NCBI RefSeq assembly: GCF_011065935.2
Contig: NZ_JAAMNH020000001.1
Location: forward strand, 1,658,489-1,690,488
Length of the DNA: 32,000 nucleotides
Source: Clostridium estertheticum
GTDB taxonomy: Bacteria; Bacillota; Clostridia; Clostridiales; Clostridiaceae
Direction: 5' to 3'
Shown: one piece after another, positions 9,595 through 25,220 of the stretch
How positions within the stretch are numbered: the first letter of the stretch is position 1
Layout of the letters: each line of letters begins with the position of its first letter
Made by a program: the position numbers and the translations under genes
Notes under the pieces: model-generated
Told to the model about the DNA's origin: nothing
The model's database searches: none
Seen by the model: only the letters and a program-made list of their open reading frames with translations

Positions 9595-10017
9595 CTATTC
9601 TATGCATCCTTTTAAAGTATGCCATGCAAGCACCGCACATTTTACTCTGGCAGGCATATTAGATATATTCTTTAATGCAATAGCATCCTCTAGCTTTTCT
9701 AATTCTTTATCATCTGTTACTTCTCTTTTTATCATTCCAATAAAAGTATTTACAAGTTCTAGTGCTTCAGCCTTGCTCTTTCGTTTAATTAAATCTATCA
9801 TCATAGAAGTTGATGCCTGGGATATTGCGCAGCCAGTTCCACTAAATGCTGCCTCCTCTATAATATCACCATTAAATTTTAACTCTAAAGTGATTTCATC
9901 TCCACAGCTTGGATTATGCCCTACCTCAGAACAATCTGCATGTTCTAAATATCTTCTATTATGACCACTTTGATTATGCTCCATTATAAGCTCTGAATAA
10001 ATTGAATTAAGATCCAT
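9595..10017 (-). CDS. sufU: SUF-system Fe-S cluster assembly scaffold/sulfur acceptor SufU (NifU/IscU-like)
   Basis: GHNPSCGDEITL...GTGCAISQASTSMM...RVKCAVLAWHTL are the conserved SufU Cys/Asp ligands. It is the last gene of the suf operon and overlaps the sufS stop. Confidence 0.9.
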   Translation of the reverse strand: MDLNSIYSELIMEHNQSGHNRRYLEHADCSEVGHNPSCGDEITLELKFNGDIIEEAAFSGTGCAISQASTSMMIDLIKRKSKAEALELVNTFIGMIKREVTDDKELEKLEDAIALKNISNMPARVKCAVLAWHTLKGCIE

Positions 10018-11245
10018 ATCCTAACCACTTCCTCACATTTTTAATACTTTCAACAAATACATCAATCTCCTCTTTTGTATTGTAGAAATAAAAGCTTATT
10101 CTAGAGGATGAATTTAAGTTTAAATACCGCATAAGAGGCTGTGCACAGTGGTGACCTGCTCTAAGAGCCACTCCATAGGTATCCACAATACTTGCCACAT
10201 CATGTGGATGAACTCCTTCTAATGTAAAAGAAATTACTCCACATCTCTTTTCCACATCCTTGCTACCTAATACCGTTATATATGGTAGCTCTCTTAGTTT
10301 CTCTAAAGCATATTCCATTAACTCTTTTTCTCTATACTGAATAAAATCCATGCCTATTTCATTTATATAATCAATAGCTGCTGCAAGACCTACTGCTCCT
10401 TCTACATTTTGCGTACCTGCCTCAAACTTGTATGGTAGCTCTGCAAAAGTGGCTTTATCTTCCCAAACATATTCAATCATATCTCCACCTCTTAAAAATG
10501 GAGGCATTGTTTTTAATAATTCTTCTTTTCCATATAATACTCCTATTCCCATTGGTGCAAGCATCTTATGACCTGAAAACACAATAAAATCTGCATCTAA
10601 TTCTTGTACATCCACCTTCATATGTGGTACGCTTTGAGCGCCGTCCACAATTACTACTGCACCTTTTTCATGGGCATAAGCTGTAATCTCCTTTATTGGA
10701 TTTATAGTACCTAGCACATTAGAAACTTGCGCAACACCTACCAGCTTTGTTTTATTTGTTATTTTCCTTTTTATTTCCTCAAAAGGAATTTCTCCATTTT
10801 GATCTACATACATATACTTTAAAATGGCACCCTTAGAAGCAGCCACATGCTGCCAAGGAAGTATATTACTGTGGTGTTCACTAATAGAAAGAACTATTTC
10901 ATCACCCTCTTCAATAAAGGTCATTCCATAGGAATAAGCCAATAAATTTAATGCCTCGGTAGTGTTTTTAGTAAATATCACTTCCTTTGAACTTCTTGCA
11001 TTAATAAAGCTTGTTACCTTTTCTCTGGCATTCTCATAAGCTTCCGTAGCTGCAACACTTAAATGATGAGCTCCTCTATGAGGGTTAGCATTTATTTCTT
11101 TGTAATATTCTCTTATAGCCTTTATTACTCTTTGGGGTTTATGTGTGGTTGCTCCATTATCTAAATAAACTAAGTTTTTACCGTTAACCTTTTGTGATAA
11201 TATGGGAAAATCACTTCTTATTTTTTCTATACTTATATTATTCAT
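10007..11245 (-). CDS. sufS: Cysteine desulfurase SufS (class II aminotransferase V)
   Basis: LDNGATTHKP, the PLP-Lys region FSGHKMLAPMGIGVLYGK, and the active-site loop RAGHHCAQPL. Confidence 0.92.
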   Translation of the reverse strand: MNNISIEKIRSDFPILSQKVNGKNLVYLDNGATTHKPQRVIKAIREYYKEINANPHRGAHHLSVAATEAYENAREKVTSFINARSSKEVIFTKNTTEALNLLAYSYGMTFIEEGDEIVLSISEHHSNILPWQHVAASKGAILKYMYVDQNGEIPFEEIKRKITNKTKLVGVAQVSNVLGTINPIKEITAYAHEKGAVVIVDGAQSVPHMKVDVQELDADFIVFSGHKMLAPMGIGVLYGKEELLKTMPPFLRGGDMIEYVWEDKATFAELPYKFEAGTQNVEGAVGLAAAIDYINEIGMDFIQYREKELMEYALEKLRELPYITVLGSKDVEKRCGVISFTLEGVHPHDVASIVDTYGVALRAGHHCAQPLMRYLNLNSSSRISFYFYNTKEEIDVFVESIKNVRKWLGYGS

Positions 11246-12344
11246 AAACTAATCTCTCCTGCATTACCGCTTCTATTCTTACCTTCAATTCCTCCACAGG
11301 GATTAAATCTATAATAGGTCTGAAGGAAGCTTCTACTATAATCTTCTTTGCCTCTTTTTCACTGAAACCTCTACTCATAAGATAAAATAGCTTGTTTTCA
11401 TCAATTTTACCAGCACTAGCTGCATGCTTACCTTCTACATCATCTTCTCCACAAATTAGCAGTGGAATAGCATCAGATTTAACATTTTTGTTTAATAGTA
11501 TCGCATACTCCTCTTCTGATCCTTTTGCCCTTGATGCACCCTTTTTAAAATCAATAGTACCTCTGAACACTTTTTTAGCTTCGTCCTTTAAAGCTCCTCT
11601 GCATTCTATATTACTTACACTTCTTCGTCCAAAATGATTCATTATATAACTGATATCTACATAACTTTTCTTATCTGCTAAGTAGATAGATTTAACATTG
11701 GCTTCACTACTTGTTTCTTCTAGGTTTGTTACATAATTTGTTACAGTCTTTTCTCCCCCTAATTCTATTGAAATGTAATTCACCTTCGCTCCATGGCCAA
11801 CATAAGCTACATTAGAATCAAAATGCTGAGAAAATTTATTCATCCTTTGAACCTTTATAACATTTACAACTGCTCCATCTTTTGCATATATCTTCGTTAA
11901 CCCATTATGAAAAACCAAGGTTTCATCCTCTGTTAAATATTCCATAACCACAGTTATTTCACTGTTTTCCTCAGCAATAATTAGGTTATTATCTATTATT
12001 ACCTCATTTTCTTTATCTCCATAAAACTCTATTTGTATAGGTTTTAATAATCTTTCTCCTTGAGGAGCATGTATTAGCACTCCTGTATTATTTGAGTTTC
12101 TTGCTAATAGCACTAATTCTTCTGATACTCCATATTTTTCTTTATTAAAATATGACTCAATAAAATCATAATTAACCTTTTTTATATTTGTTTCTTGTAC
12201 TAAAACACCTGCAAAATCATCCTGTTTAATAACAGCTTTATTGTATTTAGGAACATTAGGCATATGAAAGTCCTTTAATTTATATTCATTTACACCTAAC
12301 CATCTCCAGGTTGTTACCGGCAATTTATTTAATGCTAAATCCAT
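11238..12344 (-). CDS. sufD: Fe-S cluster assembly protein SufD
   Basis: Beta-helix SufB/SufD family protein positioned between sufB and sufS. The C-terminus is EDDVEGKHAASAGKIDENKLFYLMSRGFSEKEAKKII. Confidence 0.88.
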   Translation of the reverse strand: MDLALNKLPVTTWRWLGVNEYKLKDFHMPNVPKYNKAVIKQDDFAGVLVQETNIKKVNYDFIESYFNKEKYGVSEELVLLARNSNNTGVLIHAPQGERLLKPIQIEFYGDKENEVIIDNNLIIAEENSEITVVMEYLTEDETLVFHNGLTKIYAKDGAVVNVIKVQRMNKFSQHFDSNVAYVGHGAKVNYISIELGGEKTVTNYVTNLEETSSEANVKSIYLADKKSYVDISYIMNHFGRRSVSNIECRGALKDEAKKVFRGTIDFKKGASRAKGSEEEYAILLNKNVKSDAIPLLICGEDDVEGKHAASAGKIDENKLFYLMSRGFSEKEAKKIIVEASFRPIIDLIPVEELKVRIEAVMQERLVYE

Positions 12345-12357
12345 GTTTCACCCTCCT

Positions 12358-13776
12358 TTATCCAATTGTTCCTTGTAGCTCCAGCCTAATTAAATTATTC
12401 ATTTCAACAGCATATTCCAATGGAAGCTCCTTAGCGATAGGCTCTACAAACCCTCTTACAATCATGGCCTTTGCCTCTTCCTCACTAATTCCTCTACTCA
12501 TTAAATAGAATATTGTCTCATCACTAATTCTTCCAATCTTAGCTTCATGACCTAGATCAACTTCGTCGTTCAATATATCTATTACTGGAATAGTATCTGA
12601 TTTTGATTTATTATCAAGCATAAGTGACTCACAAGAAACTGTGGATTTGCTGTGATGAGCATTTGATGCTACCTTTACTACCCCTCTATAAAGCGCTACT
12701 CCTCCATCCTTTGAAATTGATTTAGAATTTATATTTGAAGAAGTATATGGCGCAGCATGAAGAACCTTAGCCCCTGTATCAAGGTGTTGACCCTTTCCTG
12801 CAAAAGTAATACCAGTGAACTCCACCCTTGCACCTTCTCCTTTTAAAATACTCATAGGATATAGCATAGATACCTTTGAACCAAAGGAACCTGACACCCA
12901 TTCTATAGTTCCATTTTTCTCAACAATAGCTCTTTTTGTATTTAAGTTATACATGTTCTTTGACCAATTTTCTATAGTGCTATATCTAAGAGTTGCATCT
13001 TCCTTCACATAAAGCTCTACACAGCCAGCATGAAGGTTAGCTACCGAATACTTTGGTGCTGAACACCCTTCTATAAAATGAAGCTTTGCTCCCTTTTCAA
13101 CGATTATTAATGTGTGTTCAAATTGACCTGCACCAGGTGCATTTAAACGAAAGTAAGATTGAAGAGGCATATCCACCTGAACTCCCTCTGGCACATAAAC
13201 AAAGGAGCCTCCTGACCACACAGCGCCGTGAAGAGCTGCAAATTTATGGTCACTCGGAGGTACACATTTCATAAAATACTCTTTTATTATTGGTTCATAC
13301 TCCCTAATTGCCGTTTCCATATCTGTATATACAACACCTTGTTTGGTTAATTCTTCTTTAATACTGTGATATACCACCTCTGAATCATATTGAGCACCTA
13401 CACCTGCTAAAGATTTTCTCTCTGCTTCAGGAATTCCCAATCTCTCGAAGGTATTCTTAATATCCTCTGGCACCTCACTCCACTTATTCTTCATTGATGT
13501 ATTTGGCTTTACATAAGTTACTATATTGTCTATATTTAGCTCGCTTATATCCGGTCCCCAGCTTGGTAGCTCCATTTGATTATATATCTCTAGAGATTTT
13601 AATCTAAAATCCGTCATCCACTTAGGCTCTTTCTTTTCTCTTGATATATCCTTTATTATGTCTGAGGTTAATCCATTATTGGTTTTATAACTATAACGAA
13701 CTTCATTTTTTATATCATAAATACCTCTATCTAATTCCTCTACATATGTTCTTTTTCTTTCTTCCATTTTTCTCAC
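12358..13776 (-). CDS. sufB: Fe-S cluster assembly protein SufB
   Basis: 472 aa with highly conserved SufB stretches (GVVYTDMETAIREYEPI, HTLIIVEKGAKLHFIEGCSAP, LGHEAKIGRISDETIFYLMSRGISEEEA). Confidence 0.95.
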   Translation of the reverse strand: MRKMEERKRTYVEELDRGIYDIKNEVRYSYKTNNGLTSDIIKDISREKKEPKWMTDFRLKSLEIYNQMELPSWGPDISELNIDNIVTYVKPNTSMKNKWSEVPEDIKNTFERLGIPEAERKSLAGVGAQYDSEVVYHSIKEELTKQGVVYTDMETAIREYEPIIKEYFMKCVPPSDHKFAALHGAVWSGGSFVYVPEGVQVDMPLQSYFRLNAPGAGQFEHTLIIVEKGAKLHFIEGCSAPKYSVANLHAGCVELYVKEDATLRYSTIENWSKNMYNLNTKRAIVEKNGTIEWVSGSFGSKVSMLYPMSILKGEGARVEFTGITFAGKGQHLDTGAKVLHAAPYTSSNINSKSISKDGGVALYRGVVKVASNAHHSKSTVSCESLMLDNKSKSDTIPVIDILNDEVDLGHEAKIGRISDETIFYLMSRGISEEEAKAMIVRGFVEPIAKELPLEYAVEMNNLIRLELQGTIG

Positions 13777-13784
13777 ATCCTTTA

Positions 13785-14540
13785 TTAAGAATTTTTTTCC
13801 TTAAGAAACTCATATCCTTTGATCTCTATCTCTTTCGCTAAAGAGAAATCGCCGGTTCTAACTATTTTCCCATCTATAAGCACATGTACATAATCTGGTT
13901 TTAAATAATCTAATATCTTATTATGATGTGTAATAATTAGAAAAGCATTTTCTTCATTAGCCAGCATACTTACACCCTTTGATACTACCTTTATTGCATC
14001 TACATCTAGTCCTGAATCTGCTTCATCTAAAATAGTTAACTTAGGCTCTAGTATAGCCATTTGGAGAATTTCATTCTTTTTCTTTTCTCCCCCGGAAAAG
14101 CCTACATTTAAATATCTGCTAGCATACTCTTCCTTCATATCTAAAAGCTCCATCTTTTCTTTTAGCTTTTTCTTAAATTCCATTAACCTAATAGGTTTAC
14201 CTTCCAAGGAATTTTTAGCTGTTCTTAAAAAGTTTTCTACAGTAACTCCTGTTAGCTCTTCTGGATACTGAAATGATAAAAATATACCTTTTTTAGCTCT
14301 TTCATTAGGCTTTAATTCATTAATGTTTTCACCTTGGAAAATCATTTCCCCATTTGCAATGCTGTATTTTGGATGACCCATAATAGTATTAGCTAAGGTA
14401 GATTTACCTGCTCCATTTGGTCCCATAATTACATGTATTTCGCCCTTATTTATTTCTAAATTTAATCCCTTTAATATCTCTTTTTGTTCAACCTTTGTAT
14501 GTAAAGCTTTTATTTCTAATAGCTTATCTGTCATAACCAC
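13785..14540 (-). CDS. sufC: Fe-S cluster assembly ATPase SufC
   Basis: Walker A GPNGAGKST, ABC signature FSGGEKKKNEI, Walker B ILDEADSGLD. It is the first gene of the operon. Confidence 0.95.
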   Translation of the reverse strand: MVMTDKLLEIKALHTKVEQKEILKGLNLEINKGEIHVIMGPNGAGKSTLANTIMGHPKYSIANGEMIFQGENINELKPNERAKKGIFLSFQYPEELTGVTVENFLRTAKNSLEGKPIRLMEFKKKLKEKMELLDMKEEYASRYLNVGFSGGEKKKNEILQMAILEPKLTILDEADSGLDVDAIKVVSKGVSMLANEENAFLIITHHNKILDYLKPDYVHVLIDGKIVRTGDFSLAKEIEIKGYEFLKEKNS

Positions 14541-18231: not shown

Positions 18232-18775
18232 TTAGTTATTTAATTGTAATTTCAGTTATTGATTATATTATCGTAAACTAAGGTATCTATTGCATAAGCT
18301 ATCATAATTTTAATTTTAATTGTAGAAAATATGCAAATATATGAATAGTTATTCATTAAGATTTATTCAGAAATTAATTTTAATTCAATTACAAGAAAAT
18401 ATCATTGGATTAAATGGCTCAATTACATGATTTTAGAACTTACAAAATTGTTATTATTTTAAAAATATTAAAACAGGCTATTGGCTTATGAATTAAAATG
18501 TAACACGATGTATAAAAGCTAATGATTTATTTGATAATATATTACTTGTAGATAATTTGATTACTAGTGAGGAAGCTAAAAATATTACTTATTATAAAGA
18601 AATTACTAAAATGAAATTACAATGATGTTACCTTCCTTATATCGGTTAAATATGAGATTTCCTATTATCTTAATTCATTCCAAATACATATTCTATTTTT
18701 ATACATTTTTTCATATAGAGTTAATAAATATGACTTTATAGTAGAGAAGATAATATAATAAGGCTCAAAAAAATA

Positions 18776-18801
18776 AAAACCCCAATTTACCTTGGGGTTT
18801 T
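18776..18801. terminator. Orphan strong hairpin terminator inside an ORF-free region
   Basis: aaaaccccaa tttacc ttggggtttt. T-runs lie on both sides and are stronger for the minus strand. No adjacent ORF of 60 codons or more on either strand. Confidence 0.6.
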
Positions 18802-19086
18802 TACTATTTGAAAGAGCTTTTAGAGAATATGATTTAGTATAACTGAGTGAGTTGGAAAATGAAGTTTATTTGTTAGGAGAATAAAATAAAATCCACTTAA
18901 CATTTAATAGTTTCGCCATATTATTTTTATTTAAACATGCGTGAATAATTATTATACAAAAAAATAATTAATATCTATTTCACCTATAACTCTTATTATA
19001 AAAATACATTTATTAAAATTAAAAGTTATACTATAATAAGTTTATATGTATCTGAGTTTTTATACAATTATTAGGAGGGAATAGCT

Positions 19087-20229
19087 ATGAATTTAGATGG
19101 AATAGAAAACAAGGCTTGTTGAGATCCGGATACCAAAAATTCCAGGGTGGGATTGAAAAAAGCCATTAGTACAGAAGTAAAATATATAAATATAGAATAT
19201 TTAGTAGAAGAGGAATTGCAATTATCATTAGGAAAGATAAAAAAGATAAGTACCAGCCTAACTAAAAAAGATATACTAGGTGGTTTGGGAATAAGATTAA
19301 ACATTAACAGAAATAATTATGCTATAGAGCCAGGACTATATGCGATAGGGAGTCCTGATGAAAATTCACCAGTGCTTGTAAGTGCTAATTATAAATTCAC
19401 CTTTGATAAGTTAAGGAAGGAACTCGTGAGTTTAAATTTATGGCTTCTTATTATTGATACAAAGGGCATAAATGTTTGGTGTGCTGCAGGGAAAGGAACT
19501 TTTTCAGAACAGATAATTTTAAAAGCAATGAGAGCAACTAAGCTGGATAAAGTAGTAAAGAATAAGACGCTAATATTACCACAGCTTGCAGCACCTGGAG
19601 TTTCAGCTCATACAATAACTAAATATACGGGTTTTAAGGTTATTTATGGACCGGTAGCGGCAGTTGACATCCCAGAATTTTTGCTAAAGGGATATGAGAC
19701 TACACCTAATATGAGAAAAGTTAAATTTAATATAGTAGATAGGGCTGTTTTAACGCCAGTGGAAACTATTCAAAGTATAAAATATTTTCCCATAGTAATA
19801 TTATTATTTTTAATTACAAACACTATATCCAGCAATAATCTAAGCTTTTTAGAGATATTTAAATTAAGTATGATAAATAGTACTCCATATCTAATAGCTA
19901 TTTTACTGGGCACAGTGATGATACCTATATTTTTGCCTATAATTCCATTTAAATCCTTTGCGCTAAAAGGAGCTATTGTTGGACTGATTTTGTCTATATT
20001 AACAATATATTTTAGTAGTACATTTTTATTTATTGACTCGTTAATGGTGATGGTATCTAACACATTATTATTAACTTCTATAACTACCTATTTAGGCTTG
20101 AACTTCACGGGGTCAAGCACATACACATCCTTTTCAGGGGTATTAAAGGAAACAATTTGGGCAATGCCTATAGTGATTGTGTCTTCAGTTATAGGAGTAA
20201 TACTTATGATTGTTTCAAGCATAATATAA
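19087..20229 (+). CDS. hgcA: Mercury methylation corrinoid protein HgcA. The proposed start is ATG 19087, with an in-frame TGA (19120-19122) read as selenocysteine. The conservative alternative is GTG 19147-20229.
   Basis: The cap-helix signature is GINVWCAAGKGTF. The flanking corrinoid-binding-domain conservation is present (EPGLYAIGSPDENSPVLVSANYKFTFDKLRKEL ... ILPQLAAPGVSAHTITKYTGFKVIYGP). The C-terminal multi-TM domain spans roughly 19770-20229. The only good SD (aggaggg, 7-nt spacer) precedes ATG 19087, which is in frame with the body. Confidence 0.9.
19138..19154 (+). promoter_or_regulatory. Candidate SECIS-like hairpin downstream of the hgcA in-frame TGA
   Basis: AAUUCC-AGGGU-GGGAUU is a 6-bp stem including one G.U pair. 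The loop starts 21 nt after the UGA and is G-rich. Confidence 0.35.
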
Positions 20230-20251
20230 TTGAAAAGGGGGTAGAATAAAA

Positions 20252-20512
20252 ATGAAATATCTAAAGAATGTAGCTTCTATAGTGTTTTATGAGGAGAAAT
20301 GCATTGCTTGCGGAATGTGCATAAAAGTTTGCCCTCATGAAGTATTTATATTTGAAATTAATAAAATAAAATTAGATAAAAGGGACCTTTGCATGGAGTG
20401 TGGAGCTTGTAGTAAAAATTGTCCGGTGTATGCCATTGAAGTAAAACAAGGCGTTGGATGAGCTTATGCTATCCTAAAAGGAATGCTCACTGGTAGTGAG
20501 CCTAGATGTTAA
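20252..20512 (+). CDS. hgcB: Mercury methylation ferredoxin HgcB (2x[4Fe-4S]). The proposed read-through of the in-frame TGA 20459-20461 as selenocysteine gives 86 aa. The conservative alternative is 20252-20461.
   Basis: It has two CX2CX2CX3CP motifs (CIACGMCIKVCP; CMECGACSKNCP), including the HgcB-diagnostic CMECGAC. The TGA falls in GVG-TGA-AYAILKGMLTGSEPRC, where HgcB proteins carry a conserved Cys followed by a tail ending in Cys. The gene lies 22 nt downstream of hgcA. Confidence 0.85.
20485..20501 (+). promoter_or_regulatory. Candidate SECIS-like hairpin downstream of the hgcB in-frame TGA
   Basis: GCUCAC-UGGUA-GUGAGC is a perfect 6-bp GC-rich stem. The loop starts 29 nt after the UGA and contains GGU. 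Confidence 0.45.
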
Positions 20513-20523
20513 CATATAAAAAA

Positions 20524-20560
20524 TAGGAATATAAGAGTAAATCTTATGTTCCTGTTTTTT
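20524..20560 (+). terminator. Rho-independent terminator after hgcB (copy 1 of a repeated terminator)
   Basis: aggaatataaga gtaaa tcttatgttcct followed by gttttttt. Its 3' 31 nt are identical to 24550-24580. Confidence 0.8.
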
Positions 20561-20623
20561 TATATTTAAGATCATTTAATCATTACTAAAAAAATGCAGA
20601 ATCTTTATTTTTTAAACCTTTTT

Positions 20624-20666
20624 CTGTAACACAATAACATAAATAGTAATAGTATATACTATAAAT
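20624..20666 (+). promoter_or_regulatory. Conserved 43-nt upstream box, copy 1 (putative shared promoter/operator of the paralog family)
   Basis: ctgtaacacaataacataaatagtaatagtatatactataaat is 39/43 identical to 23558-23600 and lies 148 nt upstream of ATG 20814. Confidence 0.5.
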
Positions 20667-20813
20667 TACACTATAAATATTACGTTTTACAGAGCGTATC
20701 ACCGCATCTTTAGCATTAAGAGTAGAGTCGGAATGTAGTGGATTTAGTGTAATCGATATATAAAAGATTCACAAATTATATTTTGTTAAATTAAAAGGAG
20801 GATAATATTATTT

Positions 20814-21623
20814 ATGAATATTAATTATAAATATAAAGATAGTAGTGAAGTAAGCAATTGTAATGATTCTCAAACTGCAGTTTGTTCTTTAGAAAGAAAT
20901 GCTTGTGCAACCGTTACTACTCAAGCTGAATCAATAACTGAACAAATGGATGTAACACCTGCTGTTATTGCTGCAGGACATGTAGTAGTTAAAGTCCCTG
21001 TTGTAATAGCAGAGACAAATATAACAATCCCTGTAGAAGCTACTATCACATTAGACCAAACAGTAATGGAAATTAAACGTATTAAAAAGAATGTATTTTT
21101 AACTCAATCTCGTCTTATTCCTTTTTCTCAAGACGGTCGTAATTGTACTGGGATATTATTTATAGCAGGGTTTATTAGAAAGAATATTGAGTATGCAACA
21201 CAAACTTGTCCATCAGGTACAAATGTAAATATATGTGGAGATATAAGGCACTGTACAGTTCAAGTTCCTTTTAATTTCACTACTAGAGTTACTTTCCTTA
21301 GACCACCTATTTTTACTGAAAACACTACTGTAAGTGAACTAGAATTCTTTACAGATAAACTTGAAGGCTGCGATGTTTGTGCAGATCCAGTGCTTGGACG
21401 TAATCCTTGCGATCAAAATTTCTCATTCACAGAATTCTTTAATGAAAAACCTTTTGTTGAATTAGTAAGGGCAGATATTACTGAAATTGATATTCACACA
21501 AATCCAACTTCAGACTGCCATACTCCTACAGAGCAAAGGTTCACGGAACTCACCGAAAAAATAGTAGTTAATTTAACATTAAAAGTTTTACAAAACCAAC
21601 AGATAAGAATTACAGCAGTATAA
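20814..21623 (+). CDS. Cys-rich paralog family protein P1 (269 aa), function unknown; possibly a spore-surface/coat-type protein
   Basis: SD aaaggagg lies upstream. It has 11 Cys, is about 80% identical to P3 (23677-24495), and shares its core with the C-terminus of P2. The beta-strand-rich pattern is VVVKVPVVIAETNITIPVEATITL...EIKRIKKNVFLTQSRLIP...GILFIAGFIRKNIEYA. Confidence 0.8.
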   Translation: MNINYKYKDSSEVSNCNDSQTAVCSLERNACATVTTQAESITEQMDVTPAVIAAGHVVVKVPVVIAETNITIPVEATITLDQTVMEIKRIKKNVFLTQSRLIPFSQDGRNCTGILFIAGFIRKNIEYATQTCPSGTNVNICGDIRHCTVQVPFNFTTRVTFLRPPIFTENTTVSELEFFTDKLEGCDVCADPVLGRNPCDQNFSFTEFFNEKPFVELVRADITEIDIHTNPTSDCHTPTEQRFTELTEKIVVNLTLKVLQNQQIRITAV

Positions 21624-21790: not shown

Positions 21791-23551
21791 GTGTCCAGAA
21801 TAAACCATTCATTGGAATATGATGATATCCGACATAAGAGAAAATGTGATGAAGAACAACATAAAAAGGAGCACAATGATGATCAGCATAAGAGGAAAAA
21901 AGATGAAAAACAACATAAAAAGGAGCATAATGATGATCGGCATAAGAGGAAAAAAGATGAAGAACAACATAAAAAGGAACATAATGATGATCGGCATAAG
22001 AGGAAAAAAGATGAAGAACATCATAAAAAGGAGCATAATAATGATCTGCATAAAAGAAAACATCTCGAAAAAGATCATGACGAAGTAGATCAAAAAAAGA
22101 ATCATGATAAAAATTATTTTATAGAAAGAGATCTATTTAATTTTTTTAAAACGTTTATTGCAGAAAATAATAACTATGTTCCCTTAGATAATAATTTAAA
22201 AGACAAAAACCGTAATTTATCCAAGGAGGATGACTTAGAAAATAATGTAGAAGACGAAAACTGTAATTTAACTAAGCAGGATGGCTTAGAAAACAATGTG
22301 GAAGATAAAAACTGTAATTTATCCAAGGAGGATGACTTAGAAAATAATGTAGAAGACGAAAACTGTAATTTAAGTAAGCAGGATGGCTTAGAAAACAATG
22401 TAGAAGATAAAAACTGTAACTTATCCAAGGAGGATGACTTAGAAAATAATGTAGAAGATGAAAACTGTAATTTAACTAAGCAGGATGGCTTAGAAAACAA
22501 TGTAGAAGATAAAAACTGTAACTTATCCAAGGAGGATGACTTCGAAAATAATATAGAAGATGAAAATTGCAATTTAGCTAAGCAGGATGGCTTAGAAAAC
22601 AATATAGAAGATAAAAACTGTAATTTATTCAAGGAGGATGACTTAGAAAATAATATAGAAGATGAAAATTGCAATTTATCCAAGGAGGACGGTCTAGAAA
22701 ATGACAATTATACTTGTTTTGAAGATCTATATAATGAAGAGTTCCTAGAAGAAAAGTATAATACCATTGCAAAAGAAGAGTTATCTAAAGAAACCTATAA
22801 AAATCAAGTGGATGAGGTTAGAATTATGAATTGTAAAACAACGGTTATTTCTGAAACTCTTCCCCTTTGTGAAAATATTACTCATACTTCTGAAGTCACT
22901 GTAGAGCCTGTAACAGTAAAAATTCCAGTAGTGTTAACAGAATGTACTGTAACTATTACTATTGAGTCTTCTCTTAAGCTAGAGGATGTTGTATTAGAAA
23001 TTAAACACATTAGAAAAAATGTATATTTAAATCAGTGCGAACTTATTCCTAACTCTGAAGATGGCAAACCCAATACGGGAATACTATTTATAGATGGATT
23101 TATTAGTAAGAATATAGAATACACCACTAAAGACCATAATGATAATGGAGTATCATGCGGAATGGTTAAACATGCTACAGTTAAGGTTCCTTTTAAATGC
23201 ACTACTAGAGTTACGTTCAAGACCCACCCTAAGTTTAAACATAATACTCATCAAGATGAAATGAAAATACTACAAACTAGCATTAAAATTTTCGATACCT
23301 GTGAAGAAGATATAATTGGAGGAGATATTCGAGAACAAAGTTTTAAAATCATGGAATATTTCAATGAAAAAGTTTTCTGCGAATTAATTAGTGCTGAAAT
23401 TGTTGAATCTGACATTCTTGAAAATCCAATAAAGGGGGAGGGTAAAATACCTTTAGAACAAGGATTTCATGACATTACTGAAAAGGTAGTGCTATCTCTA
23501 ACAATAAAATTATTACAAAATCAACATGTAGATATTGCAAAAAAAGATTAG
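21791..23551 (+). CDS. Paralog family protein P2 (586 aa): His/Lys-rich repeats, then acidic Cys-containing repeats, then the family core domain
   Basis: The GTG start has SD aaggaggag at a 7-nt spacing. The N-terminal region holds two tandem repeat arrays. The C-terminal roughly 240 aa align with P1/P3 (VKIPVVLTECTVTITIESSLKL...EIKHIRKNVYLNQCELIP...GILFIDGFISKNIEYT...EKVVLSLTIKLLQNQ). Confidence 0.8.
   Translation: MSRINHSLEYDDIRHKRKCDEEQHKKEHNDDQHKRKKDEKQHKKEHNDDRHKRKKDEEQHKKEHNDDRHKRKKDEEHHKKEHNNDLHKRKHLEKDHDEVDQKKNHDKNYFIERDLFNFFKTFIAENNNYVPLDNNLKDKNRNLSKEDDLENNVEDENCNLTKQDGLENNVEDKNCNLSKEDDLENNVEDENCNLSKQDGLENNVEDKNCNLSKEDDLENNVEDENCNLTKQDGLENNVEDKNCNLSKEDDFENNIEDENCNLAKQDGLENNIEDKNCNLFKEDDLENNIEDENCNLSKEDGLENDNYTCFEDLYNEEFLEEKYNTIAKEELSKETYKNQVDEVRIMNCKTTVISETLPLCENITHTSEVTVEPVTVKIPVVLTECTVTITIESSLKLEDVVLEIKHIRKNVYLNQCELIPNSEDGKPNTGILFIDGFISKNIEYTTKDHNDNGVSCGMVKHATVKVPFKCTTRVTFKTHPKFKHNTHQDEMKILQTSIKIFDTCEEDIIGGDIREQSFKIMEYFNEKVFCELISAEIVESDILENPIKGEGKIPLEQGFHDITEKVVLSLTIKLLQNQHVDIAKKD
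21833..22085 (+). repeat. 54-nt in-frame tandem repeat, about 4.5 copies (HKRKKDEEQHKKEHNDDR units)
   Basis: Units start at 21833, 21887, 21941, 21995 and 22049 (the last degenerate). They are near-identical at the DNA level. Confidence 0.9.
22208..22717 (+). repeat. 51-nt in-frame tandem repeat, about 10 copies, alternating two subtypes (102-nt super-unit)
   Basis: It encodes NCNLSKEDDLENNVEDE / NCNLTKQDGLENNVEDK alternately, with one Cys per unit. It generates spurious ORFs on the opposite strand (22174-22707). Confidence 0.92.
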
Positions 23552-23676: not shown

Positions 23677-24495
23677 ATGAATATTAATTCTAAATCAAAT
23701 CAAGATAATCAAATTAACACAGGTAATGATTCTTACATTGCAGATATTGCAGATTGTTCTTTAAAAAGCAATCAATGTGCTACGGTTACTACTCAAGCTG
23801 AAACAATAACTGAAGAAATTGATGTAACTCCTACTGTTATTTGTGCTGGAAATGTAGTTGTTAAGCTACCAGTTGTACTAGCAGAGACAAAAATAGTAAT
23901 TCCTGTTGAAGCTACTATAACATTTGACCAGGAAGTTATAGAGATTAAACGTACTAAAAAGAATGTATTTTTAACTCAATCTCGTTTAATTCCATTTTCT
24001 CAAGACAGCCGTACTGGCACTGGGATATTATTTATAGCTGGTTTTGTTAGAAAGAATATTGAGTATGCAACTCAAACTTGCCCGTCAGATACAAATATAA
24101 ATGTATGTGGAGATATAAGGCACTGTACAGTTCAAGTTCCTTTTAACTTCACTACTAGAGTTACTTTCCTTAGGCAACCTGTTTTTAATGAAAACACTAC
24201 TCCAAGTGAAATAGAATTTTTTACAGATAAACTTGCAGGCTGCGATGCTTGTGAAGATCCAGTACTTGGACGTAATCCATGCGATCAGAGTTTCTTTATT
24301 ACAGAATTCTATAATGAGAAACCTTATGTTGAATTAGTAAGGGCAGATGTTACTGAAGTTGATATTCACACAAATCCAAGGTCAAGGTGCGAAACTTCTA
24401 CAAAGCAAAGTTTTACACAGCTCACTGAAAAAGTAGTGGTAAATTTAACACTTAAAGTATTACAAAATCAACAGGTAAGGATTTCTGCAGTCTAA
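23677..24495 (+). CDS. Cys-rich paralog family protein P3 (272 aa)
   Basis: SD aaaggaggg lies upstream. It has 10 Cys and is collinear with P1 at high identity, including at the DNA level in the central region. Confidence 0.8.
   Translation: MNINSKSNQDNQINTGNDSYIADIADCSLKSNQCATVTTQAETITEEIDVTPTVICAGNVVVKLPVVLAETKIVIPVEATITFDQEVIEIKRTKKNVFLTQSRLIPFSQDSRTGTGILFIAGFVRKNIEYATQTCPSDTNINVCGDIRHCTVQVPFNFTTRVTFLRQPVFNENTTPSEIEFFTDKLAGCDACEDPVLGRNPCDQSFFITEFYNEKPYVELVRADVTEVDIHTNPRSRCETSTKQSFTQLTEKVVVNLTLKVLQNQQVRISAV

Positions 24496-24653: not shown

Positions 24654-25220
<567 letters not shown>

Follow-up and report, generated by a model that had tools for sequence, protein, structure and literature searches.

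The hgcB gene in the Clostridium estertheticum DNA analysed here very probably encodes an 86-residue selenoprotein form of HgcB, in which the UGA at residue 70 would be decoded as selenocysteine (Sec) by means of SelB and Sec-tRNA(Sec) acting at a downstream hairpin. This interpretation, put forward in an initial annotation of the window (the whole 32-kb stretch of DNA that was analysed), is supported by the alignment of the UGA with a conserved Cys, by the coding character of the extension that follows it and by a hairpin specific to the TGA forms of the gene. It is also already published. Sec at this residue of HgcB has been known since 2022, when Haft et al. (bioRxiv 10.1101/2022.07.06.499078) counted 17 HgcB selenoproteins among 266 (6.4%), Sec taking the place of the ninth invariant Cys, at residue 73. 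Our analysis makes some small additions to that work, namely a tested candidate for the HgcB SECIS, the grouping of the TGA forms in a single clade, their linkage to a CU-type HgcA and a tail with a single Cys. The hgcB features of the window are the following:

20252-20461, + strand: hgcB ORF with TGA taken as the stop, 69 aa, ending ...AIEVKQGVG-TGA
20252-20512, + strand: predicted complete hgcB coding sequence, 86 residues and TAA when UGA is decoded as Sec; U70, C86 at the C-terminus
20459-20461, + strand: candidate Sec codon UGA (residue 70), aligned with Cys73 of ND132 HgcB
20462-20509, + strand: C-terminal extension of hgcB, AYAILKGMLTGSEPRC, 16 codons
20510-20512, + strand: predicted true stop TAA of hgcB, shared in position by the Clostridium and Natronincola clades
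20518-20560, + strand: intrinsic-terminator-like stem-loop with a T run, 3' of the TAA, at the end of the hgcAB operon

The UGA codon and the conserved cysteine of HgcB

The start of hgcB (20252) lies directly 3' of hgcA, which ends at 20229. The HgcB translation contains two [4Fe-4S] motifs (C17-x2-C20-x2-C23-x3-C27-P28 and C47-x2-C50-x2-C53-x3-C57-P58), and in a profile search the protein matched Pfam Fer4 families. With Sec entered as Cys, the read-through product scored 116.9 bits over residues 2-86 on the NCBIfam model NF040864 (equivalog cutoff 99), whereas the 69-aa product, with 97.8 bits, fell under that cutoff. The tail of the read-through product has one Cys, C86, which is its last residue, and the usual Cys-Cys pair is absent. 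All coordinates of the initial annotation proved correct: translation confirmed that the ORF stops at the TGA after GVG and that reading through adds the 16-codon extension before the TAA at 20510-20512, giving 86 instead of 69 aa. The real terminator had been placed after the TAA and not after the TGA, and the site at 20518-20560 was indeed the only terminator-like one on the + strand in a scan of positions 18700 to 20900.

Based on a protein search, 44 HgcB homologues were collected, and the full-length ones carry GVG-C-A at the site of the UGA (alignment A1). A set of HgcB entries 69-72 aa long, also from this search, all stop at GVG. The UGA aligns with the near-invariant Cys of GVGC-A, that is, Cys73 in ND132, about 12 residues past the second [4Fe-4S] motif. 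The 69 residues encoded ahead of the UGA are identical to C. estertheticum WP_187356049.1, deposited as a 71-aa '4Fe-4S binding protein', and the hgcAB region shows about 92% DNA identity to that of Clostridium sp. CF012. We looked at the aligned codon in 96 HgcB loci, made up of the DNA for the short HgcB entries, genome relatives found through HgcA and 80 unbiased metagenome loci. The codon was TGT in 43 loci and TGC in 33 (Cys codons in 76/96) and TGA in the other 20, with no other codon at this position and hence neither TAA nor TAG among the 96 loci; in the unbiased metagenome set alone, TGA was found in 4 of 80 loci (5%). This distribution of Cys and TGA among orthologues, together with the GVG-C-A alignment, bears out the earlier proposal that the TGA stands at the conserved HgcB Cys.

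The TGA forms that could be read further all run through AYAI[IL]KGx[LF]TG[SR][EK]PxC to a TAA, which in a third clade is preceded by three extra codons (...CDCC or ...CDRC). Fourteen TGA forms with the common 16-codon tail were compared pairwise over regions of 48 nt. The extension showed 61/67/271 differences by codon position and a mean identity of 0.91, against 118/109/563 and 0.82 for the 48 nt upstream of the TGA and 744/896/928 and 0.41 for the 48 nt after the TAA. Synonymous codon differences outnumbered nonsynonymous ones by 256:104 in the extension (20462-20509), which is the coding-type pattern expected from the initial annotation, and the conservation extends across clades with HgcB only 60-65% identical and ends exactly at the TAA. 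The 16 codons downstream of the TGA are a coding sequence kept under purifying selection.

These results bear on the possibility that the TGA is a genuine stop, leaving a 69-residue HgcB with neither an equivalent of Cys73 nor the Cys tail (a decaying gene or a plain ferredoxin), so that the downstream likeness would be a leftover. Public annotations do end there, with proteins of 69-71 aa that include those of close relatives (WP_216300236.1 from Clostridium sp. CF012 and WP_187356049.1 from C. estertheticum, still deposited as truncations of this kind). Besides, the group does include a case of decay, Clostridium sp. KNHs214, with a visibly broken hgcA and a divergent hgcB extension. However, a genuine stop is highly improbable in view of the coding-type pattern of the extension across divergent clades, with its sharp limit at the TAA, and of the 96 loci, in which no lineage has replaced the TGA by TAA or TAG. 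Moreover, the 69-aa product scores below the NF040864 cutoff and misses the residue whose loss abolishes methylation.

Translation of the UGA as Sec also has to be weighed against read-through without selenium, either as Trp through an alternative code or through suppression by a near-cognate tRNA or Cys-tRNA, so that the 86 residues would include W or C at position 70. Several public gene calls (P0001, P0002, P0052, P0056 and P0058; loci L003, L015 and L016) have W at the Sec position, yet their DNA has TGA wherever it was checked: translation of the P0002 loci with table 11 does not give the query protein, and the W of P0001 corresponds to TGA in the otherwise identical L003. We infer that genetic code 4 was used for these calls on short AT-rich metagenome contigs, and that they represent full-length HgcB with the wrong residue. 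The stop codons of the 28 window ORFs are 22 TAA, 5 TAG and 1 TGA, the last being that of hgcB; since this sole TGA 'stop' is the predicted Sec codon, no ordinary gene of the window ends in TGA. The 27 other ORFs of the window have TGG in frame 52 times and never TGA, and TGA serves as the stop of 7 of 33 long ORFs in the related loci. Decoding of TGA as Trp (genetic code 4) is ruled out by these codon counts, by the TGA stops of related loci and by the TGA underlying the W calls. As the homologues have Cys at this site and never Trp, and a conserved SECIS-type hairpin would be unnecessary for it, selenium-free read-through of either kind is scarcely credible. No tRNA gene or sel gene lies within the 32-kb window, where some indirect support for Sec machinery in the genome comes from the second conserved in-frame TGA, in hgcA of the same operon; a literature search on Sec use in C. 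estertheticum found nothing relevant.

One of the calls with W, P0056, clusters with the HgcB described here and ends in ...MLTGSEHKS instead of ...MLTGSEPRC. The lack of a terminal Cys in this close relative may be genuine or come from an assembly error.

The hairpin downstream of the UGA

The putative signal for Sec insertion in hgcB lies within the extension:

20485-20501, + strand: SECIS-type hairpin GCUCAC-UGGUA-GUGAGC, with stem 20485-20491/20495-20501 and GGU loop 20492-20494

The initial annotation described it as a perfect 6-bp hairpin with a GGU loop 30-31 nt after the UGA. Its position, loop and spacing (30 nt) stand, but the stem has 7 bp when the closing U-A pair is counted. With a predicted energy of -8.4 kcal/mol, a 3-nt GGU loop, 7 bp and 30 nt of spacing, the hairpin agrees with the bSECIS model (PMC13188914, Fig. 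2) on all four of its criteria, which include an upper stem of 4-16 bp, a spacing of 16-37 nt and an energy of -7.5 kcal/mol or lower. A bSECIS-type hairpin follows 10 of the 1002 TGA trinucleotides of the window (about 1%). The stem is built from minority codons (CTC, 3% of Leu codons, and GAG, 27% of Glu codons, in a window of 30.5% GC), and the probability of a codon combination giving the seven pairs is about 0.01 given the LTGSE peptide and the local codon usage. These two frequencies, and the fact that hgcB is the only one of 28 ORFs to end in TGA, speak against chance as the origin of the hgcB TGA and its hairpin.

Because the peptide downstream of the UGA aligns without gaps, the same seven pairs could be scored in every locus. 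The TGA forms had a mean of 6.88 out of 7 pairs (seven in 14 of 16 distinct sequences and six in the other two), whereas the mean for the Cys forms was 3.51 overall and 4.11 for those with the identical LTGSEP peptide. In 14 distinct TGA-form sequences from three clades the helix is 98% paired. One stem pair is compensatory, being C-G in seven of these sequences, U-G in three and U-A in four, and the U-A state accompanies a Glu-to-Lys change; this covariation is thin, as it concerns one pair only and the TGA forms make up one clade, so that their 20 instances are not independent. Variability at third codon positions was 0.17 in the stem, compared with 0.41 in the rest of the extension and 0.51 upstream. 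At the single variable site of the stem all changes preserve the pair, and the loop is free to vary at its third base (0.51). In sum, this is a conserved hairpin of the bSECIS type, and its conservation is specific to the TGA forms.

Local folding energy did not separate Sec from Cys forms (-8.5 kcal/mol for TGA forms and -8.1 kcal/mol for Cys forms with the same peptide) and was replaced for that purpose by register-specific pair counts and the analysis of synonymous sites. In Cys-type hgcB (loci L019-L096, codons 8-14 after the Cys), genes with W/M-LTGSEP often form another hairpin in a GGCU...AGCC register, with similar energy. Since such Cys forms often form a hairpin of this kind, the peptide may have made it easier for a SECIS to evolve at this spot.

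The same local folding in Cys-type homologues could be taken to mean that the hairpin is not a SECIS at all and is a by-product of LTGSEP or an element of the opposite strand, recoding then depending on another signal, which would still be compatible with Sec insertion. Its loop GG is fixed by a Gly codon in all forms, and a terminator-like site was flagged on the minus strand at 20501-20485. On the other hand, no minus-strand gene ends there, and the seven-pair register sets the TGA forms apart from Cys forms that encode an identical peptide. The need for minority codons and the synonymous sites, either frozen or changed in a pair-preserving manner, also argue against a by-product. We regard this alternative as unlikely and favor a SECIS function for the hairpin.

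A second predicted helix, around the UGA itself (20456-20474), was rejected as a conserved element because it is 82% paired and broken in other clades. A scan of 18900-20700 against Rfam with E values up to 10 gave chance matches only (E above 1) and no SECIS family.

The partner gene hgcA and the clade of TGA forms

The gene upstream in the same operon has its own in-frame TGA:

19087-20229, + strand: hgcA, corrinoid protein, 380 codons and a stop when its one in-frame TGA is read through
19120-19122, + strand: in-frame TGA of hgcA, candidate Sec codon, in the N-terminal C-U motif ...ENKAC-U-DPD...
19138-19154, + strand: candidate hgcA SECIS AAUUCCA-GGG-UGGGAUU, 22 nt after the UGA

The HgcA translation includes INVWCAAGK and scored 400.4 bits on the NCBIfam equivalog NF040863 (cutoff 275). 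Its UGA would be a second Sec codon in the operon. The initial annotation had claimed two TGA codons at thiol-ligand positions in the partner proteins, each followed by a GG-loop hairpin. This stands for hgcB. In hgcA, the TGA is located in the N-terminal CU motif and not at the position of the cobalt ligand Cys93, and the hairpin in the window is weak (-3.8 kcal/mol), short of the -7.5 kcal/mol of the bSECIS model. Within the Clostridium clade this hairpin is conserved, and a different one is similarly placed in the other clades.

The two TGA codons go together. Among the TGA-type hgcB loci, the HgcA N-terminus could be read in 13, and each of these has C-TGA in hgcA; none of the Cys-type hgcB loci of the sample does, 35 of them having CC instead. 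A neighbour-joining tree built from 60 distinct HgcA sequences placed these 13 loci in one exclusive clade, which indicates a single origin of the TGA in the sample and its retention through deep divergence.

The hgcAB genes of Clostridium sp. KNHs214 (L005, 2980-4420) appear to be decaying. About 64 residues are missing from hgcA, including the NVWCAAGK cap helix, and a stop and a change of frame interrupt the gene. In hgcB the TGA is kept after ...KKAVG; the extension, VLAILRALFMSILHTNPCKSVG, has diverged and overlaps a convergent MFS gene, and no equivalent of the conserved hairpin was seen in this hgcB.

Mercury handling, known systems and genomic surroundings

Concerning the mechanism, the hairpin 30 nt downstream of the UGA at 20459-20461 would act as a bacterial SECIS on the arriving ribosome, recruiting SelB with Sec-tRNA(Sec) for the insertion of selenocysteine as residue 70. 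Translation would go on for 16 codons and end at the TAA at 20510. Sec70 would replace the strictly conserved Cys73, and its selenol may serve as a Hg ligand, U70 and C86 handling Hg(II) or CH3Hg+ in this protein. In ND132, methylation is lost altogether in the C73A variant and full activity requires one or more C-terminal Cys, and the model derived for that system has the tail cysteines fetch Hg(II) and pass CH3Hg+ to Cys73 (PMC7305189; PMC11588087).

The HgcB of Pseudodesulfovibrio mercurii (Desulfovibrio desulfuricans) ND132 shares with the one described here the two CxxCxxCxxxCP motifs, a Cys-bearing tail, a gene placed directly 3' of hgcA and a conserved position for a thiol or selenol that follows GVG where the C-terminal helix begins. 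The two differ in the residue at that position, Cys73 in ND132 and predicted Sec70 here, and in the tail, which is longer in ND132 and ends in C94-C95 but here has 16 residues and one Cys, C86. The Sec-HgcB of Haft et al. agree with ours in family, Sec position, GVGU motif and database entries truncated at the UGA. However, nearly all members of the HgcB family end in Cys-Cys according to that work, whereas this protein and most of its own clade have a single Cys (...EPRC). The same preprint (bioRxiv 10.1101/2022.07.06.499078) describes most HgcA as carrying an N-terminal CU motif. The partner hgcA of the window likewise has C-TGA near the N-terminus, but in the context ...NKAC-U-DPD... in place of the PCUGP reported there for 20 HgcA homologues, ND132 and G. 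sulfurreducens included. According to the preprint, reference data were added to NCBI's annotation pipeline; text searches of it found no description of an HgcB SECIS. The idea of Sec in HgcB was also mentioned in PNAS in 2024 (PMC11588087), and the HgcB motif GVGU (NF040864) is listed in a 2026 review (PMC13188914). As for the hairpin, it resembles the SECIS of Gram-positive SaoC and the bSECIS consensus in its perfect 7-bp stem, its GGU loop, its location within the coding sequence 3' of the UGA and a spacing within 16-37 nt. The spacing itself differs, being 17 nt in SaoC (our own count from the quoted sequence) and 30 nt in the predicted HgcB SECIS.

The HgcAB proteins make neurotoxic methylmercury, and Cys73 of HgcB is among the few residues shown to be essential. 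Selenols bind Hg more tightly than thiols do and are more nucleophilic. For these reasons, a selenol at this position could alter the kinetics of methylation and tie methylation capacity to selenium supply. A broader and rather doubtful possibility is that in one clostridial lineage the Hg-handling thiols of HgcAB were turned into selenols as a set (C-U in HgcA, GVG-U in HgcB and a tail with usually one Cys), the SECIS having perhaps come from the hairpin tendency of LTGSEP. If this were so, the usual relay of Cys73 plus Cys-Cys would give way to one of the Se-Hg-S type from U70 to C86, and selenium supply would gate the functional methylation complex, because termination at the UGA would give an inactive 69-residue HgcB. 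In practical terms, the truncated deposits and the Trp calls mean that hgcAB surveys using length, the conserved Cys or HMM cutoffs as filters can overlook this lineage or score it wrongly.

Directly downstream of hgcAB, the window contains four paralogous genes between 20814 and 25220, three on the + strand (20814-21623, 21791-23551 and 23677-24495) and one on the - strand (24654-25220). The product of the first (20814-21623) matches the CsxC family (NF045794, 250.9 bits), and the other three are similar by eye; the 586-aa paralogue contains long tandem peptide repeats, HKRKKDEEQHKKEHNDD and NCNLSKEDDLENNVEDE. In related loci, DUF7852 genes are located at the same place as these paralogues. 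About 5 kb upstream of hgcAB, on the - strand (9595-14540), there is an apparently complete suf-type Fe-S assembly cluster (SufC, SufB, SufD, SufS and SufU-like), recognized by eye from the translations.
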